Below, in pieces: positions 12,570 through 62,441 of a DNA stretch of 64,000 nucleotides. Origin of the DNA: Blasia pusilla. Lineage: Eukaryota. Made by a program: the position numbers and the translations under genes. The stretch covers positions 48,670,001 through 48,734,000 of the forward strand of contig CM114271.1 in NCBI GenBank assembly GCA_050084515.1, read 5' to 3'. The notes below the pieces were generated by a model, which did not search any database, was not told the origin of the DNA, and saw nothing but the letters and a program-made list of their open reading frames with translations. Position 1 is the first letter of the stretch, and every line of letters starts with the position of its first letter.

Positions 12570-15500
12570 TGTCACGACTGTTAGGATAGATCGGTGGGAT
12601 CTAGCAGAGCGTCTGCACGAGTAATGGAGGATAGGCCCACGAGGTTCAGAATGACCAGTTGAGGCCCCGGGAAACCTGAGAGAGCAGGTTTCCCCTTCGT
12701 TTTGGCTCATTTGGAGCCATATTGAGAAACTTACTATTTTAGGTAAGTACCATTTTGAGTATATGACCGACTTTATATTTTTGATAAATGGCCCTTGACC
12801 TCCTACATCAGGTCAAGAGCCAAGAAGGTGACTTGGGAGAATATGTTACCATGGAGAGAATTTGGGAGAGGGGACGGGGTATACCTCAAGGAGAGAGAGC
12901 TTGAGAGCTCATTCTCTCTTTGTTGAACCTCTTGGCATGAGGCGAAAGAGCTATGGTCCCTTGCCTTGTGAGTGTAACCCAAGCCTCTCGTTAGGAGAGT
13001 GGGTTTGGTTTGACATGAGGGAGAATGCACACCTTGACAGTTATGGTGTGAGATGGTGTAGAGAGAGATTGGATCTTACTTTACAAAGAGAGAATGAGAG
13101 AGTGAGAGAGCTTCATGGGGGGAGCTCGCTGGTCACTCGTTGTTTATGCCAGTTGGGGACGGTGTTTCCCATTCAGCGGCTCATGGGAGTGTTCACCGGA
13201 GCAAGGGTTTCTTTGATTGTTCTTTGCATTTGCCGATTTTTCGTGTAGAAGAGTGGCGCGCGGAAGCGCTGCCCAATTTCTGATAGAGATTGATTATGGG
13301 GGCGCATTGCCCCATGCCGATGCTCTTGAGAGCACCATGTAACTTTTTGATTTGTATTTCTACAGGTTTTACATTTTTGTTGGGAGAAATCAGTGCGGAG
13401 TGCTGCCAAATTTTGTATAGGAGAAAGAGACATGGGGCTTTACAACAGTCCCCGTCACTTTTTACTGAAATATCCAATTGCAAATATTTTTTGATTTTGT
13501 CGTAGATCATGAAGCTGTGCATGTTGTGCAACAAATAGTGTGCAATTTTAAGATACGAGAAAAAAGTTATGGTCAATCTTGCAAAAATACCATTGTTAGG
13601 CGATTTTTAGGGTTAAATTGTTCAAACCCTAAATCAGCCGCCACGCCGGCGGCGGCCGTCGCCATCATAGTCACCATCAACGGTCAATCATCATTGTCAC
13701 CGTCATCGGTCAACTGCCATCGTCACCGGTCAACCGCCATCGTCACCGGTCAACCATCACCATCACCAGTCGGCCGTCACCATCAACGGGCAACCATCAC
13801 CATCAACGGTCCACCGTCCGTTGTCCACCCTTTGGTTGCCATTGCCGCCGTTACGGAGTGGAGGGTCTTCCACAACGTTTGTTGATTCTCTGACTTGCCT
13901 CGCCACCACGTACTTTGTTTTAGCCGTCACTATCATCGAAATTTCGTCATCAAGCAATGATGGCAGATGACCTCCGATTATGGTGTTTGAGTTTTGATTT
14001 CATGCTGCTACTTTTTGATTGGTAGCCGCTAAACAACGATCGAGTAACGTGCCATGACGCTCGTAGCCGCAACGCGCTGCTGATTGCCGCGCCGTGCCGC
14101 TTGTGGCCGCACCGCATCGTCTCGATCGCGGAGCCGCACCGTCATTGTGGAGCAGAGTGTGGGTTTATTGTTGATTGAGGAGGGTATGCCACTAAGTGCC
14201 GCATCCCACCATCAAGGGTCGTGCCGTTCGTAGCCATTTTGTGCCGCCTGCAACGCCGCATTGTTCACTAGAACCGCACTGTCTATCGAGGAGTTTTGAG
14301 CAGCGTCAGTACAGGAGGAGTATGACTTGCTGATTGGAGGAGTTGTCTCCACAACCGAGTTGGGGTTGAGATTTGCAATTGCTGAGGAGCGACATTGACA
14401 TGTGTTCACGTTACCCATTCTGGTCCTTTACACTACACGTGTGAGGGATTATGGGATTTGGGTAGTTTATTTGGGGATATTGGGTGTGTGGATGATGAGA
14501 GCATCATTTATGTATGTGTTTTAGGAGACATAGACCTGTGTGGGATGTCCGGAGCTGAGGGTAGGTTGTCAATGAGATGATAACCTGGTCGATTTTCCGC
14601 ACCACGCCGCTTGTTGCCGCACGTTACACGTCTCGGGGAGGGAGAGTGTAGATCGAGTGCCGCATTTTTGGGATGAGTGATTGAGGGATTACTGGGGAGG
14701 TGAGAGTGATTGGGTGAGAGGTGCACGAGGATCATCACGGCGTTTGTTTGGGACTTTGAGAGGCGAGGTGGTGAACCCGAGAGTAGCTCTAGAGGTTTTA
14801 CGCGGAGTGGCGCGAGATTCCAAGGGTCTCCACGTGAGGGACCACCTTGATCTCCTTCTGTGTCATCGTCAGAAGAGGGGGAAGGTGTAGAGGAGTTTGT
14901 GAGCACATCGCCATACATTGTGAGTGGTCCTACTAGTTGGGCATACGAGATGGACAACTGGAGTAGAGGACCGCGTAGGTTTTCATGTGTAGTAGGTACG
15001 ATTTCATAGAAGAGTTTAGGAGTTGGTGCGATTCCCAACGGGCTAGGAACTCTACAGAGTTCAACCCGTTTACAGTATGGAACGGTATGTTCCAGCATTT
15101 AGAGTGGGCGCCCATGGACGATTACCATGAGTTCTCTTAGAGATATGCACGTGAGATCGAGGCGTGGAGGCTCTACTATGACCCACATTATGTGTCATGG
15201 ATGGAGCCGTTCCCAGATGAGGAGGAGGAGTTAGGAGAGGCTACTTCCTCTTCCACTAGTGATGTTTAGAAGGGGTCACTCGCACGGGAGCAGTTGCACC
15301 GTCTAGTCGGGTTTGTCCCAGGTTCAACCCTATGGTTGAGTTCTTTGCTGAGTTGAGGGCGAGCTACCAAGGGGTATGGACGGAGAATTTGCGGAGCATC
15401 CACGACTTCCAGAGGCGCCCAGGTGAGAGTTTGCATGAGGCTTACACTTGCTTGCGCCAGTTGATCAACGTCACTCAGGGGATGACAGAGGCTTAGGCTA

Positions 15501-18500
15501 TCCAGTCATGGTACGCGATGCTGGACCGGACCCTGCAGACACGGGTGTGGAAGGGGGTGCTTCATATGAACACCTCCCCAACATTGAGAGATGTTTTTAG
15601 GAGTGTCGAGAACATTGAGCGCAACATGGCGGAGGAGAGCGTAGCCACCATGGGTTCTGGGCGAGAGCAGTCGCGATTGTATGCACCACCTATGTAGCAA
15701 TGTGGACTCCGAGATAGGTCGACTGTGGCACCACAAGCTCAGGGAGGATACCACATATGCGAGAGTGGAGCGCCCCTCCAATTTGTTAGTGGATTCCATT
15801 CTGGATCCAGGTCGTCAATCACAAGCAGTAAGGCACGATGATCGACCACCATTGACTGTGGTCAACATGGTAGGCAGGCCACGGGCAGCCTTGCCCATGT
15901 TTGTGAGTTTTCCCACTTCCTATGCATACAAGGAGGTTGGTCTTGGCTTGGTTTGGGATGACCAGGTTCAGCGGTTTGTGGAGCCCAACGCCGATGAGAA
16001 GAGCGAGCAATGGGATTTCCCAAAGGAGTGACGGCAGTATCGTTAGTGTCAGAGGCATCACGACGCCATGTCTTGGGTCAGGCGATGGACATGAACTGCT
16101 TGACATGGATCCTCAGCTTGGGAGCGGCAGAGCAGCGCCGTATGAGATCACGATAGATCACAGCGGTTGCGTTGGTGAGCCCCATGCCTACCGAGATGGT
16201 GGAGGCAGTGGCTAGGGGCGAGACCCGAGGAGATCTACACACCAGGGGAGATCGAGAGAGACACCCTTGGACTTCTTGGGATGTTTTGCAGGTACGCAAG
16301 GAGATGATAGCCACAGCATCGAGCGTCGTTCCGGGCATTGCACGTGGAGGAGATCAGAGGTTGCAGTTGGCTGCAGGAGATCACCCGAGTTTTGTTGTTC
16401 GAGAAGGGGTTGCACCATAGCAACCATCGATACTAGCGCCGGAGAGTCCTACGGTAGTCACGATGGAGACTTGGGAGCCAAATATGGGCCCTAAGTTGAC
16501 AAGAGGAGAGCAGCGTTGGATACATCAGTTCCTCATGAGTTGTAGGAGCTCCTTTGTGTTTAGCATGGAGGATTTGGGTACGCTAAAGGGACCGGGGATC
16601 CGCTTTGAGTTGTCGAGTGATACGCCAATCTTCCGAAGATCCTATAGGTGGAGTGATATGGAAAGGGCTCTGATTCAGAGTAGGAGCCAGAAATTGGTCG
16701 GAGCATGACTAATGGAGATGTTGCATGGGGGAGTATGCATGTGCCACTATCATGCCCGCCAAGATGGATCTGCATGGCAACTGGACGGGTTGGCAGATGT
16801 GTGGGGATTACCGACCTATCAATCGGCAGACGAAGTCCGATAGGTATGCCATGCCCACCACTGAGGAGATCTTTGATGCGATTCTTCACCCAAAGGTCTT
16901 CAGTTCATTGGATTTGTGAGCCGGATACCATCAGCTGCCTATCAGATTGGAGGACAGGCAGAAGACGACATTTTGGGGCATCGATCCTCACGAGAAGGAT
17001 TATTTGTACTAGTGGCGGTTCTTACCATTTGGGTTAAAGAATGCCTCGGCGGAGTTTCAGAGGGTCATGGATAGGATCTTGGCTGGTCTTGATTTTGCTA
17101 GGTGTTAAATTGATGACATCGCAGTCTTTAGCGCCACGGTTGAGGAGCATGAGCGACATCTAGAGGATGTGTTTTGACGATTGCAATTACATGGGCTGAA
17201 GCTACATCTTGGCAAGTGCAAGTTCTTCTACGACCATATTGAATACTTGGGTCATACGATATACTCAGGGGACCTTGGTGTTCAGCAGACGAAGGTAAAG
17301 GCTATCTCACGCATTTCACGCCCTACACATATGAGCCGTGTTCGCACATTCATGGGATTGGCAAACTTCTATCAGCAGTACGTCAAGGGATTCAGTTTGA
17401 TTGCAAAGCCGCTAACCTTGTTGGCCAAGGTGGATCACGAGTGGCACTGGGGGGATGAGCTAGAGTGAGCATTTTAGTTGCTCAAGGACAAGTTGACGAT
17501 TGCGCCCATCTTGAGGAGACCGATCAAGGGGCGTCCTTTCCAGTTGAACACAGATTGGAGCATCTTGGGGCTTGGAGCAATGCTCACCCAGCATGATGAT
17601 GAGGGTTGAGAGTTCGTGGTGGCTTATGCTAGCCGCTCGGATAACGCTGCAAAGGCGAAGTACAGCTTGTATGAGGGTGAGTGTTTGGTTGCGGTGTGGG
17701 TTGTCGCGCTTTTCAAGTGTTACTTATTCTACAACCCCTTTACTATCATCACTGATCATCAACCACTTAAGTGGTTGATGGAGTCCGACAAACTTACTAA
17801 GAAGCTTAAGAGATGGGCTCTGTTGTTGCAGGAGTATGATTTTCAGGTGGTACATAGACCTGGGATGCTCAACCAAGATGCAAATGGGTTGAGTGGTAAC
17901 CCATGCCCAAGTCAGCGAGATGCGATTGGAGCTCGATGGCATGGAGAGAGTGATGAGGAGTTAGTATCAGGATGAAAAGCGTCAGCCTATTTAGGCATGT
18001 TGGCTATGGAGAGCCAAAGTGTGGAGACTTTGATGGCGAGGTCTAGTGGAGAGTCCTTGGATCCCAAGGCCAGTGAGGAGACGACAGGTGGCTAAGATAT
18101 TCATGATGATGGAGTACTCTTGGAGTACTTTCGTACTCGCAGCGTTGCGAGCACCGTGGGTGCTAGAGAGCGGGATCGGATCCTACAGCGGGCCAGACGA
18201 TTCCGTTGGGAGGGGGGCACATGTTTTGAGGGTTTGAGAGGATGGCAGAGTACGCGTAGTGTTGCATCCTTTGCAGAGAGCATGACTAGTGTAGCATGCC
18301 CACGAGGAGTTGGGTCACTTTGGGATGAAGCGAACGTATAACTTGCTCCAGATTTAGTATTGGTGGCGAGGCATGCAGACTGACGTTCACCAATTTTTTG
18401 TCAGGTGCATGGTGTGCGATCGGGTCCGAGCATCATTCAATGCTCCGACTCCAGAGTTGCATCCATTACCAATCATGGGCTTAGGAGATAGATGGAGTTT

Positions 18501-19785
18501 GGATTTTGCAGGACCTTTGCCTTTGACGGAGCGTTACAGTCTTTATGTGTTGGTGATGGTCGAGCACTTCTCGAAGTGGATCGAGTTGGTTGCATTTCCT
18601 GACAAAGCAAGTGAGGGAGTAGCTTATGCCTTCCTTGATAGAGTGTTGAGTCATTATGGCGCACCGGCTAAGGTGTTGACAGACCAGGGTATCGAGTTTC
18701 GTGGTGAGTTCCAGGCCTTGTGTGATCATGCGCTAATCGATCACCGCACAACTTGGCGGAGAGAGTTGTGCATATGGTGAAGAGGGGTTTACACAAGTAT
18801 GGCTTGTAGAGAGTTCACCTAGGAGATTGGAACCTCAAGTTGCCGTGGTTGGCGATGGGATACAGATTCAGCCGGCAGGCATCCTTAGCGTCTTTTTCAC
18901 CGTACTTGCTACTTTATGGCCAAGAGCTAGATTTACCTGCGGCCATTCATCGAGATGCTGGTGAGGTGCTGGACCTTGATGACCCAGATGTATGGGTGCC
19001 AGCATGTTCTCAGAGGGCTGAGTTGTTTCGGAGAGTGATGCCCATGGCGTTCGAGAACTTGGCAATTGCGCATCATCGTGATATGGTGAGGTTTGCGACT
19101 ATTCGGGGTGGTGGTTATCGACTAACTATCCGGAGGTTTCATTAGGGAGATTATGTCTTCTTGCAGCACACGGCACCGACGACGTTGGATGTGACTACAG
19201 GGCACACTATCCTGAGAGTGCGTGATGTTTTGCCCTCCTGGTGTGGAAGGACCATGTGCGTAATTGTACCCCATGTCACCTTCCTAACATTGATGGTATA
19301 TTAGATCCGAGCTCAACAGTAGTTCCTGCAAGCTTGCGTTGTATGTTGTGTGGTTCTGCCCGTGGTGCGGCCACGATGCTAATCTATGATGAATGTTCGA
19401 GAGGTTGTTATATGGCATGTCTGACGCCACCTCTCACTAGGGTTCCTCGGGGAAAATGGATGTGTCCGAGATGTAGATAGAGAAGATACTAGGTAGGTTT
19501 TGATTCCACCTTTTTCTGTGACAGAAGGCGACTAACAATGGGGCCATATGAGCACCCGGCCTTTCTTGCTCTTAGTGTCTGAGAGATGTATGTCATAGTA
19601 GGTAGGGATAGATGGCTATCTGGAGCTAGAGGGACCTAACCACTAGCTAGGGGGGCGATTGGAGTTATTTTAGTACATCTTGTCTCGTTGTTTGGATGCC
19701 ATGAGTTAGCATGGGATGGTGCGTGTTTATGTGTGTGTTTGGTGACAGCAATTTTTGTTGTGTAGCGATGTGTATGCGCACGATA
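12570..19785 (+). mobile_element. MTase-Gypsy family copy with both termini (B - internal - PPT - A), internally deleted between gag and mid-MTase
   Basis: Starts TGTCACG and ends GCGCACGATA; gag about 14900-15680; MTase C-terminal part 15755-16150; RT 16460-17470; RNase H TDHQPLKWL; integrase WSLDFAGPLP, LTDQG; PHD finger 19330-19480; purine tract AGGGGGGCGA at about 19649. Confidence 0.85.
19241..19480 (+). pseudogene. Integrase C-terminal PHD finger (decayed)
   Basis: CMLC..LIYDECSRGCYMACLTPPLTRVPRGKWMCPRC, a C4HC3 pattern with two ligands mutated. Confidence 0.8.
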
Positions 19786-20214
19786 ACCCTCTTGGTTGTT
19801 GCATGATTTCAAGGTTTGTGGACAACCTTTAGTATGTGTCTCGTAGCGTTAATTTTCCACCTCCATCATATATCACGAATATGGGCTTTTATTGTATGTG
19901 AAGGAGGCTGATAGCCATTGGTATTCCTTCCCTATCTCTATGGACAAGTCTTGGTTGTCGATATGCACTTGTTCTCAAGAATTACTTCTTGCTATATTTA
20001 TTGGGTCACTGCTATACATTAATCCCTAGATTTGCTGAAGTCTAATTGTCGAGTTCACTAGTTCTGAATTTGAGCTATCTTACTCCCACCCAATGTTGTG
20101 GGGTACATTGGGATTAAATAAGGTCAAAAAAGGAAAAGTGAAAAAATAATGTTGTAGCTTCTATCTCCCATACTTTGAGGAGAGGAAAGTTTGGAGTTGG
20201 CTATAGGGAAGCGA

Positions 20215-21605
20215 TCGAGTCTTTTTGTTTGAGATAGGATTGCACCATAGCAACCGCAGATATCCTCGCCAAAGAGTCTTACAATAGTCACGATGGAGAC
20301 TTGGGAGCTAGATATGACTCATATGAGCCCTTAGTTGACAGGAGGAGATTAGCGTCGGACACATTAGTGCCTTGGAAGTCGTAGGAGTTCCTTTGCATTT
20401 AGTATCTATGATTTAGGTAGGTTGAAGGATATCCGCATTGAGTTGTCTAGCAATATGATGATCTTCTGATGACCCTACAGGTATAGTGATATGGAGAGAC
20501 CTCTAATTTAGAGTAGGAGCCAAGACTTGGCTGAAGCAAGACTAGTGGAGATGTTGCATGGACAATATGCACGTGTTAATTTCATGCCCGCCAAAAAGGA
20601 TGTGTATGGCAACTGGACGGATAAGCATATGTGTGGAGACTACCAACCTATCAATCATCAAACCAAGTTCGATAGGTATGCTATGCCCCCTCCAAAGGAG
20701 ATCTTTGATGTTATTAGACATACCAAGTCTTTAGTTTGTTGGATCTCCAAGGCAAATACTATAAGTTGCCTACTAGATTTGGAGGACAAGTAGAAGATGA
20801 CATTTTAGGGCATCGATCCTCATAGAAAGGATTGTTTGTACCATTGGAGGTTTTTACAATTTGGATTAAAGAATGCATGGGAAAAGTTTTAGAGGGCCAT
20901 GGATAGGATCTTGGCACGTCTGGATTTTAAGAGGTGTTACATTGATAACTTTGATAATTACAGTTACATGGGTTGAAGCTACATCTAGGTAAGTGCAAGT
21001 TCTTCTACAACCAGATTGAGTACTTGGGTTATACGATATACCTAGTTGACCTTGGTGTTCAGTAGACAAAAGTAGAGGCTATCTCACGCGTTCCATGCCC
21101 TATAGATGTGAGTCGAGTCCATGCATTCATGAGATTGGTGAACTTCTATTGATGGTACATCAAGGGTTTTAGTTTTGTAGGTGCGCAACACTATCCCAAG
21201 GAGGATATATGTATACTAGATCTCTTTGGAGGGATTAGTATAGCGTTGGCTGCACTGTTGCAGGTCGGAGTAAGAGTACAATAGTACTTGCATGTGGAGA
21301 GGGCTGAGACTACACGTAGAGTCTTATTACATCACGTGTCAAGACTAGTCGAGTTGTATCCTCAGTTATTGCCATTGTTTGCAGTCACGGGATATCAACA
21401 TGTACTTCCGATCGATATTTTATTGTTGGGGGCATCAGATCTTGATAGGATTGGTTAGATACACTTGGTGGTGGCAGGGTGGCCATGTTTTGGGAGATAT
21501 TGCGAGTTCTTCAACATTGGCAGACTACCCAACGATGTTCTCCAGCCTACATTTTGGAGAATATCCCATTGTTAGGTGACACTCAAGCCTGAGTGATGGC
21601 GAGTG
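20215..21605 (+). mobile_element. Highly decayed MTase-Gypsy fragments (RT, then MTase motifs I-VI)
   Basis: MCGDYQPIN (20527-20793); LDLFGGIS near 21217; VVAGWPC near 21467; YILENIP near 21548. Confidence 0.75.
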
Positions 21606-28594: not shown

Positions 28595-28700
28595 TGTCGT
28601 GCGAATCCACATCGTCATACAACATACATCGATGACATACCATACTCACATACATACATAACATAGACAAGAGCATACACAAACACAAGTGTACCACAAC
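28595..28700 (-). repeat. Terminal repeat A, outer copy
   Basis: Near-identical to 29071-29176 (tgtcgtgcgaatccacatcg...gtgtaccacaac). Confidence 0.95.
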
Positions 28701-29068
28701 TGAAATCCGTGAAAGACCTACAGTCATAAAACACGTATAGAATCACATACAATCGAGCCAAATCCACTCCACGATGGGAGAATCCAAGTCAAAGCTTGCA
28801 GGAACCACCATAGCCAAGAGCTCTACTCACTACCAAGGCTAACTCCCAACACAACAGGCTCAACTCAAAGAACTAACTGTTCTTTGAGTGCACTCCATAC
28901 TATATCCTCCAACCTAAGAGCGGGTCCTACTGGAAAAGTCACCCTCAACTGAGTAACCCCCAACCCTATGTATGAAACCGCATCTCTACCTAGACACTAC
29001 GGCCCTACATAAGGTATGGCCTCTATTAGCACACTATACTCTACAACGTAATCCGTATGGTCATGACT
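28701..29068 (-). repeat. Terminal repeat B, 3' copy
   Basis: Collinear with 38202-38569; differences are mostly transitions. Confidence 0.95.
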
Positions 29069-29070
29069 GC

Positions 29071-29176
29071 TGTCGTGCGAATCCACATCGTCATACAATA
29101 TACATCGCTGACATATCATACTCACATACATACATAACATAGACAAGAGCATACACAAACACAAGTGTACCACAAC
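29071..29176 (-). repeat. Terminal repeat A, inner copy, preceded in element sense by a polypurine tract
   Basis: Duplicate of 28595-28700; the minus strand reads AGGGGGGTGA immediately before it (about 29177-29186). Confidence 0.92.
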
Positions 29177-29349
29177 TCACCCCCCTAACTGGCAGTTAGG
29201 TCCCTCTAACTCCCAGGTAGCCCTATACATCTACTACATGCTATACACCTTCTTGGATGTACGAATCAGAAGGCCGGGTGCTAGGTTGCCCCATCGTTAG
29301 TCGCATATCTGTAATCCATATCACGCAAAGATTAAGTCATCTACCTCTC

Positions 29350-30550
29350 CTAAGTACATCGAGGACAAACCCACCTTCCAGTAGGAACAACATCCATACG
29401 TGGAGTCAAACATATCATGTGCCAACCCCTAGAACACCGATCACACACCAACATACGGGTTGCGTTACCAGCAGACCCACACAACATGCACCTCAAGCTA
29501 GCACGTATCATGGCTAAGCTTGGGTCAACAGTACCATCCAGATTTGGAAGATGACATGGCGCACAATTACGCACATGGGCCTTCCAAACAACTCCATCAC
29601 AACCCTCCAACATGAGAACTCCAAAAGCTAGCACCTCGCGCACTCATAAAATAGTGCGGCCCGCCGTCACATCCAACGTTGTCGGTGCAATCTGCTGCAA
29701 ATAGACATAGTCCCTCACATGGAACCTACGAATCAATGGTCGATAACCTCTACCCCGAATGGTTGCATACCGCAACGTATCCCTATGTTGAGCCATGGCA
29801 AGATTCTCAAAGGCTGTTGGCATAACTCTCCGAAAGAAATCTGCCCGCTGAGAACACACTCTCATCCACATCTCTGGGTCATCAAGGTTCACCACCTCAC
29901 TAGACTCCCGACGAATTGCTGCTGGCAAGTCTGGATCTCGGCCGTATAACAGAAAATAAGGTGAGAAGGAAGCCAAGGATGCTTGGCGACTGAACCTATA
30001 CCCCATGGCTAGCCATAGCAACTGAATATCCCCGTCTCCAAGATGCCCCTTCTGTAGGCTATACTTGCGCAATGCCCTCTTCACCGTCTGAACCACACGC
30101 TCAGCCAAACCATCCGCCTCTGGATGATCTCGAGACGTGGTCCGATGATCAATCAACGCCTTGTCACACAAGACTTGAAACTTACCCTGAAACTTTGTAC
30201 CCTGGTCGGTCAGTACTTCAGCAAGTGCACCAAAATGACTAAGCACTCTATCAAGAAACGCATACGCCGTTCTCTCACTTGCCTTGTCAGGTAATGCCAC
30301 CATCTCAATCCACTTGGAGAAGTGCTCCACCATCACCAACACATATCGATGATGTCGTACAGTCAACGGTAACGGTCCCGCAAAGTCCCCACTCCAACGA
30401 TAATCCAACCCCATAATAGGCAAGGGGTGTAACTATGGTGTAGGGGCATTGAATGATGCCCTCACCCGGTCACAAACCATACAACGTGACACCAACTGTT
30501 GCACCTGAGTATGCATGCCACGCCACCAATACTAACCAAGGAGCAAGCTA
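29350..30550 (-). pseudogene. DDE integrase with C-terminal PHD finger
   Basis: DFAGPLP, LTDQG, GLAERVV (29644-30423); CMLCG..LVCDRCSRGWHMICL..WVCPRC (29350-29643). Confidence 0.92.
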
Positions 30551-30759
30551 TTCCTACGGACCAGTAGGGTGCCAGACATAGTGAATGGCAAGGAGCTAGA
30601 CCGTGTTCTTCAACGTGCTAAGAGGTATCGATTGGAGGGAACACATATTCTCCGTGTGTGGGAGGATGGTAGAGTACGAGTAGTGTTGCATTTGGCTCAG
30701 AGAGAGCGCATTGTGCGACATGCCCATAAAGAGTTGGGACATTTTGGGGTAAAGCGCAT

Positions 30760-32640
30760 CATCATGAATATCACGCTGATCCGTACAACCATCTCCAACC
30801 TTAGGATCTGAAGGCTGGCCATCTACCCTCTGACAAGAGTAAGATGTCAAGTGGTCCTCCATACTAGAGTCCACCCCTAACCAACATAAAAAGGCGGATG
30901 CATGCCAACCTCGCACCATCTCCTCATCAACCTCGCCATGCCATCTGGCCCCAGTTGCATCCTCTTGGCTAGTACATGGGTTCCTACTCAACCCATCATC
31001 ATCAAGGTTGGCAACTTCAGGTCCATGTACCATCTGGAAGTCATACTCCTGTAAGATAAGAGCCCACCGTGCAAGCTTCCTTGTAAGCTTGCAGACTCCA
31101 TCAACCACTTGAGCGGCTGATGATCAGTAACAAGGGTAAACTGTGTGCCAAACAAGTAACACCTAAAGTGTGCCACCGCCCACACTACTGCCAAGCACTC
31201 TCCCTTATATGAACTAAAGCGCAACTCCGTTGCATTATTCGAACGACTTGCATAGGCCACCACAAACTCCATGTGCTCATCATCATGTTGTGTCAACACC
31301 GCTCCAAGTCCCAACGTACTCCAATCAGTGTGTAACTGAAATGGGCGCCCTCTGATAGGTATCCTCAATATAGGCGCCGCCACCAACTAGGCCTTGAGCT
31401 CCACAAAAGCTCTCTCCTGATCATCTCCCAAGTGCTACTCTTGATATGATTTCAGAAATTGGTTCAAAGCCTTTGCCATAGCACTAAATCCCTTCACATA
31501 CCTCCGATAGTAGTTCGCCAATCTCATGAATGCCCGAACTCTACTCACATATACCGGACGCGGAATAAGTGCAATAGCCTCCACCTTTGCTTGCTGAACT
31601 CCCAAACCACCGGGATAGATCACATGACCCAAGTACTCAAAATCCTCATGGAAGAACTTACACTTTCCTCGATGCAAACGTAGACCATGAGCTTTCAACC
31701 GCTCAAACACAATCTGCAAATGTATCTGATGCTCCTCCACCGTGTTACTGAACACCAAGATATCATCAATGTAACACCGAAAAAAATCCAACCCTGCTAG
31801 GATCCTGTCCATCACTCTCTGAAACTCGGCATGTGCATTCTTCAACCCAAAGGGTAAGAACTTACACTTTCTTGGATGCAAACGTAGACCATGAGCTTTC
31901 AACCGCTCAAACACAATCTGCAAATGTATCTGATGCTCCTCCACCGTGTTACTGAACACCAAGATATCATCAATGTAACACCGAACAAAATCCAACCCTG
32001 CTACGATACTGTCCATCACTCTCTGAAACTTGGCATGTGCATTCTTCAACCCAAAGGGTAAGAATTTCCACTTGTACAAACAATCCTTGCCATGAGAGTT
32101 GACACCCCAAAATGTTGTGTTGGCCTTGTCCCTCTCTCGAATCGGCAATTGATGGTATCCTGCCTAAAGATCCAAAGTACTGAAAATATTTGCGTGTCCC
32201 ACCACATGTATAGGCATGGCATACTTATCGGCCTTGGTTTGCCGATTGATAGGACGGTAATCTCCACACATCCGCCTATCCGTGTAGTTGCCATGCATAT
32301 AATTTTTAGCAGGCATGACAGTGGCTGGTGCATACTCTCTATGCGATAACTCCACTAATCCAGCCTCCAAAAGGTCCAACGTCCTACTCTGAATCAGGTC
32401 CCTCTCCATATCACTATATCGGTAGGGACAACGGAAGATTGGCGTATCACTAGCCAAATCAATCCGTATACCGGGTCCAACCAGAGCACCCAACTCCTTC
32501 ATGCTAAAGGCAAAACAACTCCTATAAGCACGTAGGAATTGTGTCAAGCGTCGTTTCTCACCTCCCGTAAGCTTGGGCCCAAGTAATGGCTCCCAAGTCT
32601 CCTCCACTGGCGCACTAGAGGGAGAGGACGATGCCATTGG
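30760..32640 (-). pseudogene. Reverse transcriptase and RNase H
   Basis: RMCGDYRPIN, STLDL, LPFGLKNA, CYIDD (twice), HTDWSTLGLGAVL, TDHQPLKWL. Confidence 0.95.
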
Positions 32641-32899
32641 CTGCTACGTAACCCCCTCACAAGATGGTACACCCTTAGCTACACCATCATCTGAGCAAAT
32701 AACTCCTCCACCAGCATGAGCAACCAACTCCACATGCCCAGCCATTACATCCCATTTACTCCAAGGATGCAAAATACTACTCTCCTCGCCCCCAACCGAT
32801 GCCTGTACGGTCCTGGTAGGCATGGAGCTCATTACAAGGGATGGAAGACCCACAGACATAGTCCGAAGTCGACGCGGCTTGGCCATACCAAGACTCAAA

Positions 32900-33830
32900 A
32901 TCCAAGTCAAACAATTCAGATCCATGGCCTGACCCAACACATGACGTCGTGAAGCCTCAAAAATGGAAACAACCGTTGTCACACCAGTAGCAAATCCCAT
33001 CGCACGCTCTCTCTCATCAGCATTAGGCTCCACCAACTGTCGCACATGAGAATCCCATACAAGCCCGGGACCACCTTCCCTGTAGGCATGTGACGAGGGA
33101 AAACTCACAAATGTGGGTAGTGCCATCCTAGGCTGGCCCACACGGTTCACCACTGCCATGGGTGACCAATCAATAACCCTCACCACTTGAGAAAGTCGCC
33201 AAGATCAAGATACTATCCATCAGAAGGCAAGGATCATTGACGGCATCATATGCTCGATGTAGAACCTCCCTAGGCAACAAGTTTTTCCACCACAAGCGTG
33301 GACGATGTGCACGGGAGCCAACTCGCGCTGCATCCAACAACACCGCTGGTCCAATCCAAGACCACACCTCATGAACACTCGCCATCATCCGGGTCCAAGT
33401 GTCACCCAACAATGGAACATTCTCCAGAATGTAAGCTGGAGCACGTGCTTGATGAACCTGAATATGTCGTAACATCTCCCAAAACAATCGAGACCTAGGG
33501 TCGTGTAATCCCTCACCACGACCAGCACGTGTATGACCCTGACATGGCCATCCAGCAATCACCAAATCCACAGGACCAACCCTCTCAAGGTCCTACGCCC
33601 CCAACAATGCAATGTGTGACGGCAAAGCATGCTGGTACTCACGAACAGCTGATGGCGGAAACAACTCAGGATATCTCCGCATCAACTGACCGATATGTCA
33701 GGATGAGACTCTCTGGACCGTCTCATCTCACTCCACATACATGTATCTCCGCACAGGAATACCGGTCTGCAACACTGCAACCAAACCAATGCTAATCCCA
33801 CCAAAGAGATCTAACACACAAATGCCCTCC
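32900..33830 (-). pseudogene. DNMT3-like C5 cytosine methyltransferase domain inside pol
   Basis: Motif I VLDLFGGISIG..YVE; motif IV DLVIAGWPCQG; motif VI YILENV; motif VIII RAHRPRLWW; motif IX ERERAMGF; motif X RRHVLGQAM; canonical order. Confidence 0.92.
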
Positions 33831-34234
33831 GTCGGATACTGCCATACAATGGGTTTAGTATCCAAAGGGGATAACCCAACTAGACGAGAAGTAGGAGTTC
33901 GCCATGGGGCATCCTCTTCCTCGTGAGATATAATAGCCTCACACCAAGCCTCCTGCACTAGGCGATCAGCCTCCTGCCGTAGTGCACCGCCTGAACTCCA
34001 AAGTGGCACATCCAACAATGAGGATGCCACTGCTGCAAAACTAGGGACCTCCTCTACCTCCTCATGCACAGGAGAATCCATAGCAAAAACATTACCCTCC
34101 AAAAAGTCTCCTGGCCAAGTGACTATTCCACTAAAACTAGCCACAGATGCTAACACCGTTGGGGAAGACCCTCCTGGTCGAGCCCCATAAATAAATCTCA
34201 CAGGAACTTGGCTCATACGTCCATCCCCGGACTG

Positions 34235-34726
34235 TCAACCAGGTCTATAAGACACTGTCTCAGTCCAGTAATCCATCTGAAAACCCATCGGGTACAATAC
34301 TACTCCTCCAACTAGTACATCATACGACTTGGCTGATATGACCATTGCAGGTACTCCCAACCGGGAGCTATCAGTCGCATGATGTGGTCTCAACTGTACA
34401 GAAAACTTCTCCCGTGTCATGAATTGAGACCTATCATTGGCTCCTCCAAGTGATGTTTGAATCTGGAATGGGTAAGGCTCAAGCTCTAACATCCGAATAC
34501 CCAAACCAATACATGCCGCCTTTCCCAACATCAAAGGTTGGGCACCAGAGTCTAACAAGACTCTATCTGGTCTATACACCTGTCTTGTAGGACTCACCAA
34601 TCGGAATATTCCACTTTGGTTGTCCAACATACATACACCAGGTGTAAGCCTCTCACGATCAATGGCTTGCCAGGCTGGTAATGCATCCATCTTCGCCGCC
34701 GCCGCCAAGTAGCAAGTGGTACTCAA
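34235..34726 (-). pseudogene. Retropepsin aspartic protease
   Basis: VLLDSGAQ active-site motif and YDVLVGG. Confidence 0.85.
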
Positions 34727-35419
34727 TGCTACACCGACATAGAGGGTCGCTCCACCGCAACACCCTCATCCACCTCAAAGACGTAGCGATAATACCCCAC
34801 GTTCACACAACGTGGCTGCTAGCTGAAATACAGGAGCTAAGTCAACTCCTAAAGCCATCAGTTCCATGGCCGAAAACAATGGGGATCCCAACACTGAAGT
34901 TGTCATCCGCAATACTGCACTGGATGTTGCATCTGTGTCTACTACACGCGATGTAGATGCCTCAGTCCCCACTGTCACCTCAATAGGCTGCGTAGGAACC
35001 ATGGATGGAGTCCTAAGCACCTTAGACAACAAGAATGACTGGGGAAGCCTAGCCTGCCTCCCAGCCTCACCCCTCTGTGGGTCCAAATCTACAGTAGCAC
35101 CACGTGGCTTTGACGCTTGAGTGGCTCCTCTCGTAACTGCAGCTGATGCCTCAACCTGTGCTGCACTCGCCATATAAGAGAGATCATCCCCTCCATAAGA
35201 GGTGGAAGCCCTTGCTTCCGAACCTGATCTGTGTTGGATACCAGCCATAGTAGCCAACTTTTGCTCCAACTGCTCAATCCTGGCAGCCATAGCTGACTCT
35301 GTCGTAGTCGTAGGGGTAGCCACAGTAGGCTCTCCAACCACTGATCCACCTCTACCATCCCTACCACCTCTACCACCTCAGCCTCTCAGAGCTACTCCAC
35401 CACGGCCGCGGCCTGATCT

Positions 35420-36700
35420 CAACTCTGGATGAAGATCAAAGCAACGCTCTCGAGGAGGACCTGGTCTCCCGCAATGATCACACTGAGTTGGGGCCGACTG
35501 AGGCCCATCCTCCAAAGTCCGTCTCCCATCCTCTTGGGGATAAAACTTCCTAACATGATCACCTCCACATGTCCAACACGACTGTTCTTGCTGCGGGCCG
35601 GTGCAGCAAAGGAAGGCAATGGTCTCTGCGCAAGTGTCCCTCTAGGACCTGACTGAGGTCGTGTGTACCCCCCATGACTCCCACTACTACTACCACCACC
35701 ACTACTACGAGACTGTGAGGTGGGCTACTGAACACGAGAAGTAGTAGTTGTATCCCTACTGAATGCGGATGTCACCACTCTCTCCTTCACCATGTTAAGC
35801 TCAATCTTTTTAGATAGAGCAAACACATGGGTCAATGTGGGTGAATCATCACTCATAAGAGTAGCATCACGTACCCTACGGTGCAACTCTCTGTCCAAGA
35901 TCCTATACTAAAACTGGACTGCCTAAGCCTCAGTCACACCCTAGGTAACTGAAATCAAGCGTCGCATACAAGTGTATGCCTCACGAAGACTCTCACCAGT
36001 CTTTCGCTCAAATTCCTGAAGACTTCTCAACTTCTCTGTCTTCACTCCCTGATAGTTCTTCTTCAACATCTTGAAGAACTCTGCAACCGGGCTAAACGAT
36101 GGTGGGGCACTAGTACCCCCATTGGTACCTCCATCGATACCTCCACTGGTACCCCCACTCCGGCTCGTACTCGTACCACTCAACGTCGGGCTGGCTGGCA
36201 TAGTAGGAGCACTACTACCAATACCACCATAGGTGATAGACACATAGCCTGGAGACCAATATTGTCTCCACGCCTCAATCTCAGCAATATGGTCCTTCCT
36301 AAACTCATGGTAATCTTCCATGGGTGGTCCCTCCAAGTGCTGAAACAACCCCTTCCAAGCCAAGAAGGGTGTAAACAACGTGGCGTTCCGCAACATCTGC
36401 ATATCACACCACGTATCAAACTCCTACATGAAGTCCTCCAACTCAATGGTGCCCACTCCACCCGAGTATCGTCGTGGGCCCTTCATGGCCCCATATATCC
36501 CATCCATGTCCCAAATCAATGGAGCTGCAACACTCGATAACAACGTAGAAGACTCGGTGTTTGGAACATCCTCGTCCTCCTCTTCATCAACCGTCGGAAG
36601 TGGAAAAGGTAGCCGATACCTAAATCCACTCCGTGTGAAACCACCACTATCCGCACCACGGTCCCCAACCAGACCACCCGACAGCTCCGTGATGACCAAC
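35420..36700 (-). pseudogene. Gag-like ORF with two degenerate zinc knuckles
   Basis: LQEFERKTGESLREAY (retrotransposon gag-like); CWTCGGDH and CDHCGR..ERC read on the minus strand at about 35440-35580. Confidence 0.75.
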
Positions 36701-37258
36701 GCCGATGCCGCACCACCACTAAATTACCACCACTAAGTAACCAAGTGACGTCGATGTCGCTGTACTATTCTAGCTCTAATAGCTATGGATGTAGGCAACC
36801 TAACCTGTCAGCACCACAAGAAGCCTCCCACGGTCTACTCGTCATCACTCCACCCTCACTACCGGTAGCACACAGGAGTAACACTACTCTGGAAATCAGC
36901 GTCAACCCTAACAATGGGCGCGCAAGCAAGAAGCAACGATGGAGGGGATCCAAACACAGGAAGTCCAACGACAACCCTCCAATCAAAAATGGGAATCAAG
37001 GTAACACAATCCACCAAACGTGGCGCCCCCTGAATCCACAGAACCCATCCCATTAGTCTAACGCAATAGCTACTCCGCCACAGGTCGATGACGTGCTAGT
37101 CGGACTCACAGCACTTGAAAATATGAACTGTATGGAGAAGCTACACCATACTATGCGCTAGAGGTCCATCAACCAAAAAAATTGAGATGCATAAAGTGCC
37201 TAACACATCTCCGAACAACACCAAATGAGCTACACCACTGTGTACACTGGCATAGTTA

Positions 37259-37311
37259 AGAACTCAGCAGTTAAGCGTCTTCCAGGCAGAATAGCCTAAA
37301 GATGGGTGACC
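37259..37311 (+). promoter_or_regulatory. 5S rRNA internal-control-region-like segment (A box, IE, C box), antisense within the element 5' leader
   Basis: AGAACTCAGCAGTTAAGCGT...GATGGGTGACC aligns without gaps to the plant 5S core as recalled from memory (about 39/53 by hand); A-to-C box spacing is preserved. Confidence 0.7.
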
Positions 37312-38201
37312 AGTTATACAACACGCAAATCACAAATCCTACAAAAATTGCCTCACGCCCAAGCAAGCAAGCTTGCTTTCTTGCTCCTTGCTCCTTGCTC
37401 CGCCTCTCACGCCCACTCGCCCCGAGCTACCACGAGTTGCCTCGAAGCCTCAAAATGCTCGAGATATGCCCTGTTCGCCATGCTTTGCTATGGAGAGAGG
37501 CCCAACCAGGGCGCCCCCAATGGGATAGGCGTCTCCAACAACCAACAAGTCACCAACCAACCAACCCCTCCGATCCGTTGTCCACCATAGCCAGACCTTG
37601 AGCTAGTCCGCAAAATTTCTATCAACAATTACTCCACAAATACTCAACCAAAATTGAATCTATTTTGAAAAATTCAATTGACCACCATAGCTATCTCTCC
37701 CCAAAAAATCAGCTACAACTGAGCTCCGTACTCTGAGTTAAAAATCATACAAACTTGTTGTCCATACACCTCAAGAATCGTAAATCCGACCGCGCTTCCG
37801 CCCAGATTCATGCACGCAGAAATCCGCAATGCTCCACACACTCAAGCAGATAGCTTCACATAAGATCACAATACAAGTAGCAACAGGAACCTCTCACCCG
37901 ATTTGGATGAACTTCAACACAGCTTCCGCACTCCAAGCTCTCCATATCAGAAAACCGTCGAACACGAACCAGAATCTTCAATCCTTGATAACTTCCAAAT
38001 CCCTTGACGAAATCCGGCGATCTAAAGCGCGTTGGAAAGCTCTCAGCAAGGCGCTTCTTTCCCAATCAATCACGCACCAAATTCCTACCTCCAACATAGG
38101 CCACAAGCCACGAACATCCACGGCTGAGTACACAATCAGCCCTAACCAGATCCTACTGATCCACAATCGAAGCTACCATCCATCTACTCTAGTTCTTTGA
38201 G

Positions 38202-38569
38202 TGAAATCCATGAAAGACCTATTGTCATAAAACATGTATAGAATCACATAAAATTGAGCCAAACCCACTCCACGATGGGAGAATCCAAGTCGAAGCTTGC
38301 GGGAACCACCATAGCCAAGAGCTCTACTCACTACCAAGGCTAACTCCCAACGCAACAGGCTCAACTCAAAGAACTAATTGTTCTTTGAGTGCACTCCATA
38401 CTATATCCTCCAACCTAAGAGCGGGCCCTACTGGAAAAGTCACCCTCAACAAAGTAACCCCCAACCCTATGTATGAAACCGCATCTCTATCTAGACACTA
38501 CGGCCCTACATAAGGTATGGCCTCTACTAGCACACTATACTCTACGACATAATCCATATGGTCATGACA
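38202..38569 (-). repeat. Terminal repeat B, 5' copy (promoter-bearing, LTR-like unit)
   Basis: Element sense TGTCATGACC...GGATTTCA; TATA-like GATATAG at about 38401-38407; internal hairpin 38364-38390. Confidence 0.93.
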
Positions 38570-52049: not shown

Positions 52050-52677
52050 TGTCACATCTTATTTTGACGTAGGTAGAGTTCTATCGTGTCGACAACATAG
52101 AGAGTCAACGGGTTGTTCGGATGTAACTTCGTCCCGAGATGTCGGATGAGGTTGGCGATAGGTCTATTGCATCGGGAACGCCATTTATGGTGATTTACCT
52201 ATTTTGGTTCAAGCCCATCAGGTGATCCGTTGACCGAGTCAATGGTCATCCGGTAACCTATGTACGCAGGTTACCATTGGTAGAGCTATTTTGGGAAGAA
52301 GAGCCTTCTTGCTCTTCCCAAGGGTATAAGAGTGAGAGAGATGGCTTTCTCAAGCCATCTTTCCCATATTGAGCCTTAGGAGCACCTCTCTTGCATGTGC
52401 GTGTGTGGGTGTGTAGGAGCTAGGGTGCTAGCGTCTTGATCCCCTCATAGCCGAGGGTTGATGTGGTTCGATATGCCGATGTAGATTCATGAGTGGAGTT
52501 GTAGGCTGGGTGAGCCAGTTTTACTACTCTGATTTTGGTTGTGGGGTCTCATTATATATGCGTGACTATATTTTGTTTATGTGTGGATCTATCCGTATGT
52601 TGGGGAAGATCGTTGTTGTGTGGTGTGTAGATGTGACCAACGATGTGGGTTGTGTAGTGATGTGTATGCGCACGACA
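52050..52677 (+). mobile_element. Solo B+A terminal unit of the MTase-Gypsy family
   Basis: TGTCACATC...ATGTGTATGCGCACGACA; the end matches A; flanks AGGA/AAGA (4 bp, one transition). Confidence 0.8.
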
Positions 52678-54332
52678 AAGATGTAGAAAGTAGGTTTGAT
52701 TTGATAACAATGTTTGATCACAACATAAGAAATATCAAACTGCATAAGAGTGACTTGGGTTGCTAGAAGTTGGAGATAAATTAGAGGTGCATGTTGAATG
52801 TTGGGATATCAGTTGATGAGAGGTTGCATAAGAGTTGGGTGGCCTTGATTAGGATATAAACCCCCTCTCCTTATGAGTTCTTGTTAGTTTCATGTGATGA
52901 TGGTGGTGGAAGAAATCATGAGACTATTTTTTTGGAGATGCTAAGACGGATATTGTGAGTGGAGGTAGGTGTAAGTATGCATACGTGCATGAATGTTCAC
53001 CAAGGATGAGCCAACGTAAGTGCATGTAGCAAGGAGATACGAATTTCAATGGAAGTAGAATTCCGACACTACGTGTTCATGGGGAAGTTGCACAATAGTT
53101 GAGGATGGTCATTGTACATATACATATATATCTCCACACAATGTTCATCACTATTACTCATCAAATATATTAACCGTAGACTAACTCAATCATCCACCCA
53201 ATACAATTAGGGAGGCTAATCATCACCAAAACATCTCAATAAAATAGATGAGAAATCTCACATTGCACTCAAAGTGGATCAAGAGCCACTTTTCACAAGT
53301 AGACAGTCAAAGTTCACATAAGTAGGGAACTTACCAATAGTAGTAAGTTCCTCATATGACCTCCAAACATGTCCACATAAAGGGGAAACCTATTATAGTA
53401 GGTTATCCTAGATTTTAGAATCGAACGGGTTATCCATGACCTATTGGACTCAACCTCCAGTCTCTACCAAAGTGTTGCACGAGAACTTATTGTTCCACTA
53501 TCAAAGACTCGACTATGGTTGAGTACCATGACACAACGCCCATAATTGCAACGCGTCGCTGATTCTCGCGTTGTGCTTCTCAGGGTAGCATGCACCACAC
53601 CATCTTGATTACAGATACACATCAATGCGGAGGAGCAGAGCATGGATTTTTCTTAAAGAGGAGGGAATGTTGCTATTTTTTTGCATCTTGTCATCGAGGG
53701 CCATGCCATTTGTAGCCATTCTATATTTCCATTGTTGCATTATACCGCTGTAACTATAACACACATCGAGGAGATTTGAGCATCGTTAGCATTGGGGAGT
53801 GCAACTTGATGATTAGACGAGGTTGTCTCCATGAATGAGTTGGATGCAAGGTTTTCAATTTTTGAGAAGAAATATCGACATTGTGTTCAAATTACCCATT
53901 TTGATATTTTTCCTTGCATATAGGAGGGATTTTTGGGTATCGGGTAGTTGTTGGGGTATAGGGATTTATATAGATGTTGAGAGTATCCTTGATGTATGTA
54001 GTTAGGAGCAAGGTCCGGGTAGTTTTTTCTTGGCAACCCGTAGATATCCGGGGCCTTAGACGTGCAGTCAGAAAATTCGTTTAGGGTTCCGGTAGTAGGA
54101 GATAGAAATAATTTAAGACAGCTAATTTCTGAGATAAAATTTTTTTAAAGGTAAATTTCTGAATTTTTTATATTTTGACCAGTGCATTTCTGGGACTTGG
54201 GTTTGCGGGCCCCCAATTTCGGGCGGCTTGAAAATCTTCCCGGAAATTTTATTTCCGGTTTCCAACTCTTCAACTCTATTTTTCTCTCCATTTTGCACTC
54301 CTTCAAGGCTTCAACTTGGAAATTCCTTTCAC

Positions 54333-60967: not shown

Positions 60968-61065
60968 TCATTGCAAGTTAGCCATGCTAGGGCTGGTTGA
61001 GTGGTGGATCAGATGATGGTTTTGCTGACTATCCCAGCCTCTATTTAAAAAATACGAAGTATACT

Positions 61066-61120
61066 TGGGAGAGGCAGGATTCGAACCTACGTAGAAAACC
61101 TTCAGCAGATTTACAGTCTG
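61066..61120 (-). pseudogene. trnY: 3' 55 nt of a mitochondrial-type tRNA-Tyr(GTA), probable NUMT
   Basis: CAGACTGTAAATCTGCTGAAGGTTTTCTACGTAGGTTCGAATCCTGCCTCTCCCA: anticodon arm GTA, long variable arm, T arm, acceptor 3' strand; 5' part is absent. Confidence 0.8.
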
Positions 61121-61846: not shown

Positions 61847-62441
61847 TGTTGTGCGGATACATATCGTTACACAACATACATCGCTGGTCACATCTACACC
61901 ACACAACACCGATCTTCCACATATATGGGTCATCTTTCTCAAGTCCTCATCTTTCTCATGTAAAAATAAAGAGTAGTAAAAACGGCACACCCGGCCTAAA
62001 ACTCCACTCCTCAATCTACATCGGCATATCGAGCCTCGTCCACCCTGCGCTATCAAGGAATCCGGACGCTAACACCCCAGTCCTATCTCACACACATACA
62101 AGGAGGTGCTCCAATGGCCCAACATGAGAAAGATGGCTTAGGAAAGCCATCTTCCTCTCTTATATAGGGTTGGGAAGAGCCAAAAGGCTCTTCTCCCTAA
62201 AAATAGCTATCCTCTTGGTAACGTGCGCACACAGGTTACCAGAGGTGGATGACCTGGTCAACAAGTCACCCGGTTGTGAAAGACCTCAACAAGAAAGTTG
62301 TCAGAATCGACATTCCTGACACAATGGACCTATCCTCAACCTCATCCGACACCGTGGGACAAAGTTACACTCAAGATAGTCCGCTGGCTCCTACGCCCTA
62401 TCCACGATAGATCTCGGCCTTTCGGCTACTCAGATGTGACA
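61847..62441 (-). mobile_element. Solo B+A unit inserted in the MTase-RT linker
   Basis: TGTTGTGCG...GATGTGACA; 4-bp TSD GGTG (61843-61846, 62442-62445). Confidence 0.85.

Follow-up and report, generated by a model that had tools for sequence, protein, structure and literature searches.

The long terminal repeat (LTR) retrotransposon described here lies on the minus strand of a 64,000-nucleotide stretch of Blasia pusilla DNA (assembly GCA_050084515.1, contig CM114271.1, positions 48,670,001 to 48,734,000; called the window below) and occupies positions 28595-38569 of it. Read in element sense, it has the order B-internal-A-B-A, with a single repeat unit, B, at its 5' end and the units A, B and again A at its 3' end. 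The comparison of related loci indicates that this split-repeat layout is the normal integrated form of the family and not a local rearrangement. The window locus itself is an old, dead member of a Ty3/Gypsy retrotransposon family that is present in very high copy number in a bryophyte-like plant. How the layout is produced can probably be described as follows: reverse transcription would yield complementary DNA (cDNA) with LTRs composed of A+B, the ends of this cDNA would be joined head to tail, and the integrase would open a palindrome inside the joined molecule.

The window copy consists of B1 (38569-38202), about 9 kb of internal sequence, a G-run, A1, the dinucleotide GC, B2 and A2 (to 28595). 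A repeat finder and blastn aligned the two B copies (28701-29067/8 with 38202-38568/9) over 367 nucleotides (nt) at 94.8% identity (E 1e-164) and the two A copies (28595-28701 with 29071-29177) over 107 nt at 97.2% identity (E 5e-46). The repeat coordinates and the B-internal-A-B-A order proposed in an earlier reading of the window (the initial annotation) were thereby found correct within 1 nt. The 5' half reads flank, TGTCATGACC..B1..GGATTTCA, then CTCAAAGAAC..internal..AGTTAGGGGGG TG, and the 3' half continues with AGTTGTGG..A1..GCACGACA, GC, AGTCATGACC..B2..GGATTTCA, GTTGTGG..A2..GCACGACA and flank.

With the window integrase open reading frame (ORF) as query, 80 of 348 related metagenome loci were kept, and their layouts were read by self-comparison and by searches with A and B. 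Besides the window copy, 24 loci, representing 16 insertion sites with distinct flanks, possess a long 3' end (G-run, A, 2 nt, B, A, flank), in which the A copies begin about 470 and 925 nt past the integrase match; one cluster among them (L030) belongs to a diverged subfamily with a B of 465 nt. At the 5' side B is followed directly by internal sequence in 13 of 13 independent ends (12 locus clusters and the window), none of which has A next to B, and no case of a G-run directly followed by B was present among the 80 loci. A short 3' end (G-run, complete A, flank) was found at 15 further insertion sites and with a truncated A at three more; one other cluster stops within B at a contig end, and L027 stops 1 nt past A. 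The split-repeat layout spans three diverged subfamilies, namely the window type, the type of L030 and of element X (a relative located elsewhere in the window) and, in part, L072. When terminal layouts and target-site duplications (TSDs) were tabulated, as the initial annotation had suggested, 16 independent insertions shared the order polypurine tract-A-B-A. A conventional element with two B+A LTRs was rejected as a description of the family, with none of the 13 5' ends and no copy in the 80 loci being of this kind. The family is extremely abundant in its source organism (summed contig depth in run X1 of 16,000-110,000 on the element versus 5-100 on the flanks) and was detected as well in air metagenomes and in runs whose labels name four other organisms.

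Both ends could be read in ten copies, nine from metagenomes and the one in the window; eight of these ten have perfect 4-bp TSDs, against a random expectation of 1/256 per flank pair. Those of the long forms are TCTC (L018), CATA (L020), AAGG (L032) and AATG (L066, in which the first bases of B1 are damaged); those of the short forms are TGTT (L004), TACA (L012), TGTG (L062) and ACTA (L080), with three of four positions matching in L007 (GGTT versus TGTT). Since the duplications lie outside TGTCATG...CACGACA, the inserted unit is exactly TGTCATG...CACGACA, inserted as by a DDE integrase. The flanking sequences thus indicate an integration of the DDE type with TG...CA ends and back the earlier placement of the integration ends at the start of B and the end of A.

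The joint between A1 and B2 is strikingly constant in length: exactly 2 nt separate ..GACA from TGTC.. in 16 of 16 readable junctions (15 locus clusters and the window; L040, with a truncated A1, was excluded). The spacer is GC in six, AC in seven, AT in two and GT in one junction, always a purine followed by a pyrimidine. With GC, the joint reads GACAGCTGTC (in the window, once the TG of B1 is restored at the start of B), which corresponds to the two element termini abutted in a CAG|CTG palindrome. We take the spacers AC, AT and GT to be GC changed by C>T or G>A at a CAG/CTG site, the context of plant CHG methylation. In 14 of 16 locus clusters the second internal joint, B2|A2, is TTTTCAGTTGTGG or differs from it by point changes, six of the variants being G>A changes at another CAG site. 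In the window it reads GGATTTCAGTTGTGG, and compared with the G-run context YG and one of two A's are missing. The initial annotation had the end of B fused to the first base after the polypurine tract; this has to be amended, as the 2-3 nt that follow the G-run (TG and the shared A) are absent from the join. L014 keeps an extra G at this position; in L018 the join contains 17 nt of filler, and the CG following the G-run is retained. The B2|A2 join looks like a head-to-tail union of the B end with the A start that is newly made with each insertion.

Both putative priming sites of reverse transcription can be located relative to these repeats. The G-run (..CTAGGGGGG, then CG or TG) abuts A in every locus read. 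Directly after B1, ACTCAAAGAACT is found in 5 of 5 full-length copies of the long form, and there is no tRNA-type site at this place. Instead, the sequence after B1 is complementary to a stretch inside B at a fixed distance of 171 nt (loci) or 174 nt (window). The 13-nt complement is perfect in L032 and the window, matches at 12 of 13 positions in L004, L007 and L055, at 11 of 13 in L016 (at 158 nt instead of the usual distance) and at 10 of 13 in L020, L062, L066 and L080. Two changes in L062 are mirrored on both sides of the pair. Element X has a distinct pair of the same geometry, CTCATTCTCTCTTTGT and ACAAAGAGAGAATGAG, an exact complement of 16 nt whose arms are 175 nt apart. In shuffled controls an inverted pair of minimum word length occurred in 49 of 2000 cases for X (11-mers) and in 63 of 2000 for the window (10-mers); the real pairs are longer than these minimum words and at a fixed position. 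In the window the candidate self-primer TAGTTCTTTGAGT doubles as the 3' arm of a hairpin, CTCAAAGAAC-AATTA-GTTCTTTGAG. A TATA-like motif precedes the stretch inside B by about 25-30 nt in both subfamilies, and by sequence reading X has GTATAC at the same relative place as the GATATAG of the window. Such a self-priming arrangement implies a predicted transcript start inside B and a cDNA LTR of A+B, giving A-B-internal-A-B.

The A copies themselves are informative about their origin. The A1 and A2 consensus sequences are equal save for one column that is variable in both sets, no column separates the two classes, and in a nearest-neighbour comparison of A1 with A2 all copies were about equally distant from one another. 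A deletion of 8 nt and at least seven substitutions, none of them present in the metagenome copies, are common to the A1 and A2 of the window copy. Subfamily markers common to both A's of one element argue that A2 is not an independently inherited segment, and from these alignments we conclude that both repeat pairs are remade in each cycle.

We assume that transcription starts in B1 and that the RNA ends in B2. The minus strand would then be self-primed in a Tf1-like manner, the 13-nt stretch of B pairing with the sequence directly after B1, and the plus strand would start at the G-run before A, so that the cDNA would bear conventional A+B LTRs in the order A-B-internal-A-B. The ends of this cDNA would be joined head to tail, either within a 2-LTR circle or through a template jump from one end to the other, to form the B|A join. 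The DDE integrase would bypass the cDNA ends and use the palindrome (..CACGACA-GC-TGTCATG..) that lies within the LTR adjacent to the primer site. A staggered cut in the palindrome would release a permuted linear molecule, B-internal-A-B-A, with recessed CA-3'OH ends and 2-nt overhangs, to be inserted with a 4-bp duplication. After insertion, recombination between A1 and A2 would lead to B-internal-A copies and recombination between B1 and B2 to solo B-A units. The initial annotation had proposed the same A-B-internal-A-B cDNA, which fits the conserved G-run before A and the self-priming site after B. This A+B-LTR step is supported by the sequences themselves; the joining of the ends, including the circle of the initial annotation, and the opening of the palindrome are steps that we infer. 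There is precedent for the last step, as the integrases of prototype foamy virus (PFV) and human immunodeficiency virus type 1 (HIV-1) cleave the palindromic LTR-LTR junction according to passages of PMC1180852 and PMC1905944.

The short forms can be traced to the long ones in one instance. L062 (short) and L064 (long) have the identical flank and TSD and represent one insertion in two states, so that short forms can derive from long ones by recombination of A1 with A2. Between these two loci the flanks are 95-99% identical and the element body only 91%; the body may mutate much faster than its surroundings or may be converted by other copies. A different arrangement was present in L029 (3699-3876) and L033 (1750-1927), again a single insertion, in which an inverted copy of the first 178 nt of B takes the place of A2 after B2. 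Since its breakpoint coincides exactly with the self-primer hairpin, the join resembles the primer-binding sequence. The inverted B may have arisen by snap-back during self-priming or by rearrangement.

Several observations weigh against the proposed route. A 2-LTR circle contains two identical palindromes, and the alternative permutation B-A-B-internal-A was seen at 0 of 13 5' ends, an asymmetry that the model leaves unexplained. End joining would typically leave a less uniform B|A join than the one observed (nearly alike in 14 of 16). Both this uniformity and the absence of the other permutation would be accounted for if the reverse transcriptase jumped from end to end, using the shared A as an overlap of 1 nt. 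The best primer complement is off the expected place in L012 and L018, two of the 12 copies. At 38408 of the window 22 RNA molecule ends are piled up, away from the predicted start (near 38376) and from any obvious polyA site, and no circular or tandem intermediate was seen among the 15 read joints listed of 62. ORFs of at least 900 amino acids (aa) were found only in L071 and L072; all copies of the window subfamily are decayed, so that activity cannot be assumed for it. Finally, the window copy is flanked by ATAT and ATGC (2 of 4 positions matching) and thus has no TSD.

The main rival to head-to-tail joining is that reverse transcription itself yields the permuted DNA, in the way suggested for PAT, Ngaro and DIRS elements, with the A-B joint as a bridging template and insertion of the linear DNA without any circle. 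A templated product would be expected to have a near-invariant B|A join, as is found at 14 of 16 sites, but the other two (L014 and L018) contain extra or filler bases, like end joining. Direct synthesis would also agree with the absence of the circle's alternative permutation (0 of 13), with the layout, which is identical to that of split-direct-repeat elements as described in passages of PMC8969392 and PMC7192593, and with DIRS-1 cDNA, reported in the latter passages as mostly linear. The priming sites are at variance with it: inspection of the junction sequences by eye revealed neither a second polypurine tract before B, that is before the left end TGTCATG, nor a detectable primer complement after A, the right end CACGACA, whereas the conserved G-run and the self-primer site are placed exactly for A+B LTRs. 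On balance we regard direct synthesis as rather unlikely. An improbable variant would have the integrase nick two internal sites on linear A-B...A-B cDNA and insert B-internal-A, the long form being a rarer by-product. The 15 clean short-form insertion sites, and perfect TSDs in four of five two-ended short copies (L004, L012, L062 and L080; three of four positions in L007), would be in line with this, but recombination of A1 with A2 also yields short forms with their TSDs kept, and at least the short form of L062 is a deletion product, as L064 is the same insertion. Moreover, the transcript of a short copy would lack the part of B upstream of the presumed start; such a copy would be unable to restore itself, and the family would go extinct.

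Integration by a tyrosine recombinase acting in trans, with the Gypsy integrase unused, is suggested by the fact that the split-repeat layout is otherwise known from tyrosine-recombinase elements. We give it very little credence in view of the perfect 4-bp TSDs in 8 of 10 copies, DIRS-type elements being described in passages of PMC8969392 as lacking TSDs; in addition, Pfam found no recombinase domain in the element or in its near-intact relative L072, in which integrase core and zinc-binding domains are conserved. Practically no credence is left for the idea that a conventional element flanked by two B+A LTRs was rearranged locally, or misassembled, with loss of the 5' A and duplication of A before the 3' LTR. 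The window copy, which has no TSD and carries a private 204-nt duplication and an inversion of about 200 nt, might by itself have suggested such a history, but this is already contradicted by the same layout at 16 independent metagenome sites in three diverged subfamilies and by the lack of a conventional copy in the 80 loci.

The coding content places the element among the Ty3/Gypsy elements. Its genes are arranged in the order gag, protease, Dnmt3-like methyltransferase, reverse transcriptase (RT), RNase H, integrase and PHD finger, and Pfam finds RVT_1, RT_RNaseH and rve in Ty3/Gypsy order in the pol region of the window copy. Pfam was run on 19 ORFs of the element, including both strands of the leader and gag region, and on the two long ORFs of L072, and none of these matched a tyrosine recombinase (PF00589). 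The earlier assignment of a Ty3/Gypsy DDE integrase without a tyrosine recombinase is thus borne out for the window copy and L072; the DNMT and PHD domains in pol are features that the initial annotation did not contain, as are the Tf1-like complement next to B1 and the palindromic A|B joint. In the window copy stops or frameshifts break every pol domain. Its RT contains a private tandem duplication of 204 nt (31652-32059), which a contig of run X7 lacks (joint 31827>32032), and the private inversion of about 200 nt (30552-30754) is seen as joints at 30551/30755 in 4 of 4 runs and as a spike of antisense RNA depth in the bin 30509-30895. The positions of all features are given in the table.

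Features of the element and of related units in the window
Feature	Position	Strand	Remarks
B1, 5' terminal repeat	38202..38569	-	starts TGTCATGACC at 38569, ends GGATTTCA at 38202; 94.8% identical to B2
TATA-like GATATAG in B	38401..38407	-	predicted promoter element; about 25-30 nt upstream of candidate self-primer
Candidate self-primer TAGTTCTTTGAGT in B	38364..38376	-	exact 13-nt complement of 38190-38202, 174 nt apart
Putative primer-binding position ACTCAAAGAACTA	38190..38202	-	adjoins B1 end; no tRNA-type TGG motif
gag-like ORF fragment	35941..36423	-	assigned by position; Retrotrans_gag E 0.087, below cut-off; aligns with gag regions of related copies X and Z
Protease region	34235..34765	-	assigned by position; no Pfam match in window copy; colinear L072 region is Asp_protease_2, E 2e-4
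Dnmt3-like C5 methyltransferase, three ORF pieces	32644..34234	-	PF00145 E 4.8e-10 on 33170-33592; motifs DLFGG, PCQ, ENV
Reverse transcriptase	31435..32643	-	RVT_1 E 2e-41; holds private 204-nt tandem duplication
RNase H	30988..31386	-	RT_RNaseH E 6e-30
Segment inverted relative to family	30552..30754	-	opposite-strand joints; blast match to X inverted
DDE integrase core (rve)	29644..30432	-	PF00665 E 1.9e-13
C-terminal PHD finger	29356..29490	-	PF00628 E 3e-11; sits where chromoviruses have a chromodomain
Polypurine tract AGTTAGGGGGG, then TG	29178..29190	-	..CTAGGGGGG YG, then AGTTGTGG, conserved in related loci
A1	29071..29177	-	directly after polypurine tract; 97.2% identical to A2
2-nt spacer GC	29069..29070	-	between A1 end (..GACA) and B2 start; sequence reading
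B2	28701..29068	-	repeat finder and blastn
A2, 3' terminal repeat	28595..28700	-	ends ..GCACGACA at 28595; B2/A2 join GGATTTCA|GTTGTGG
Element X, diverged decayed relative	12570..19786	+	about 70% nt identity; B starts TGTCACG
Solo B-A unit, related subfamily	52051..52678	+	TGTCAC...GCACGACA; flanks AGGA and AAGA
Solo B-A unit	61847..62441	-	perfect 4-bp duplication CACC
Decayed B-A unit	about 60564-60968		third solo unit in window

L072 (976-8226) is the sole near-intact relative among the 80 loci and has two ORFs of 1369 aa and 1047 aa in the same frame with one stop between them. The former comprises gag, protease and DNMT, the latter RT, RNase H, the zinc-binding and core domains of the integrase and the PHD finger; Pfam detects Asp_protease_2, RVT_1, RT_RNaseH, Integrase_H2C2 and rve. 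The top PDB matches of its DNMT region are DNMT3A/3B/3C (E about 2e-7), above the bacterial M.HaeIII and M.HhaI, and that of its pol is the Ty3 Gag-Pol 7q5b (E 4e-98). The same pol is 47% identical to the Klebsormidium nitens protein KFL_009030040, which combines DNMT, RT, RNase H and integrase, over 88% of L072 pol, and also matches Closterium proteins of this make-up. The nearest named proteins of the window DNMT piece come from Marchantia, Sphagnum, Calypogeia and Riccia (65-78% identity), and several of them combine DNMT, RT and RNase H; the PHD finger is also present in element X, L072 and many homologues. Homologues that join DNMT with RT in Marchantia, Klebsormidium and Closterium thus place the element, on the basis of protein similarity, in a streptophyte Gypsy-DNMT3 lineage, of which it is a bryophyte-type member.

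Reads of run X22 (raw, stranded RNA) matched the element 4996 times at a likeness of at least 85% and its flanks not at all. The first mate was nearly always on the plus strand, which corresponds to element-sense RNA in the usual library type. RNA reads that diverge from the window copy at 29180 continue with an X-like A start, so that expressed relatives, too, have the G-run followed by A. Joints of the G-run with B or of A with internal sequence were absent among the 15 of 62 joints listed, which is weak evidence.

The initial annotation was not aware of a description of this architecture for Gypsy elements, but the layout is in print. KnitGypsy-Dnmt3 of Klebsormidium nitens has a Gypsy pol with a Dnmt3-type methyltransferase in its polyprotein (de Mendoza et al. 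2018, Nat Commun, PMC5890265), and the legend to Fig. 4c of that paper describes its repeats as 'the same as that of a DIRS retrotransposon', with Gypsy domains. The window element is a relative of KnitGypsy-Dnmt3: the two share the DNMT in a Gypsy polyprotein and DIRS-like repeats, in K. nitens as worded in that legend, and differ in their host, the nearest named proteins of the window element being those of the bryophytes listed above. The passages of main text and legend that deal with KnitGypsy-Dnmt3 give no TSDs, junction sequences, priming sites or mechanism (PMC5890265). A literature search for the element by name returned only de Mendoza et al. 2018, and papers on 'split direct repeats' with Gypsy and integrase, judged mostly by their listings, suggested no Gypsy case; a 2026 preprint mentions 'streptophytes (Gypsy-DNMT3)' in passing. 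Literature searches returned no published mechanism for DIRS-like repeats in Gypsy elements. The TSDs, the palindrome of abutted ends, the self-priming pair and the series of long, short and solo forms appear to be new in the present analysis.

TOC1 is another retroelement with split direct repeats. That an A1...B1-A2-B2-type layout characterises PAT/Ngaro-type elements, as the initial annotation stated, agrees with passages of PMC8969392 and PMC7192593, in which PAT-like and Ngaro elements (order DIRS) have the repeat order X1-internal-Y1-X2-Y2 in common with the window family. Those elements, however, use a tyrosine recombinase and are reported to have no TSDs, whereas a Ty3-like pol with a DDE integrase, TG...CA ends and TSDs of 4 bp are found in the window family. 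With Ty3/Gypsy elements (Metaviridae) the family shares the pol order protease-RT-RNase H-integrase (rve), the short TSD and the TG...CA ends, but it lacks two identical flanking LTRs; instead, G-run and primer site bracket a conceptual A+B LTR. Self-priming is described for Tf1/sushi and the moss/plant Tcn1 clade of chromoviruses in passages of Neumann et al. (2019, PMC6317226). The window family resembles these in having no tRNA-type site and a complement about 170 nt upstream, in the presumed R-U5, that co-varies between subfamilies; it differs by a PHD finger in place of the chromodomain, by the DNMT and by the permuted terminal repeats. The cleavage of 2-LTR circles by the integrases of PFV and, in vitro, HIV-1, as given in the passages of PMC1180852 and PMC1905944, likewise involves a DDE integrase, a staggered cut at a palindrome of abutted ends and processed CA ends, a cut that in the window family would be of the same kind. 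The retroviral palindrome is that of the LTR-LTR joint, and retroviral proviruses are unpermuted, whereas in the window family the palindrome is inside the LTR with a 2-nt spacer and the B|A joint of the two LTRs is kept in the integrated copy. In the IS3 family, bacterial DNA transposons without reverse transcription, a circle with abutted inverted ends and a spacer of a few bp is the substrate of a DDE enzyme.

The window contains further members of the group. Element X has the order B, internal sequence, G-run and an A-like segment ending in GCGCACGATA, with no A at its 5' end and with its own pair of primer and primer-binding site. At least four further diverged Gypsy-DNMT copies are nested in the window (Y, X, a fragment at 20177-21610, and Z; positions 1-8000, 12570-21600 and 58500-64000), and the 5' end of Z (TGTCACG at 63098) sits in the YIDD motif of another copy's RT. 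The decayed RT of another Gypsy-DNMT relative is interrupted at 2689-5034 by an insertion of 2346 bp, possibly of the foldback type, which has terminal inverted repeats of 474 nt (98% complementary) with the tips TGTGCG...CGCACA and is flanked by TAGGT as a perfect 5-bp duplication. Positions 8255-8404 hold at least five units of a 22-nt tandem repeat (type AGTCATAA.GAATGACTA), which adjoins a 600-nt inverted duplication (6393-6986 versus 7445-8049) in the decayed element at the left end. On the minus strand at 61040-61110, between two solo B-A units, lies a tRNA-like fragment of T-arm and acceptor (..GGTTCGAATCC..CCA-like); ARAGORN found no tRNA gene in the whole window. A search of a plasmid collection with the repeats gave no match, which is uninformative.

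The permuted layout is thus the replicating form of a widespread, very high-copy plant lineage with classical 4-bp TSDs, which raises a testable question, namely which DNA form a retroviral-type integrase can use. For annotation, a program searching for LTRs would take B1 and B2 as the pair, find no matching TSD and set the 3' end at the wrong place, and the annotation of such elements in bryophyte and charophyte genomes is probably incorrect. The polyprotein of these elements unites a DNA methyltransferase of the de novo type with a PHD chromatin reader. It is possible, though still somewhat doubtful, that the whole streptophyte Gypsy lineage (Klebsormidium, Closterium, liverworts and mosses) obligatorily integrates via head-to-tail joined cDNA, its integrase cutting the palindrome within the LTR and not the termini. 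If so, every provirus would be a circular permutation of its cDNA. The circle-junction route has long been debated and largely dismissed for retroviruses; the lineage would then represent a natural retroelement on this route and the DDE counterpart of the DIRS/PAT strategy.

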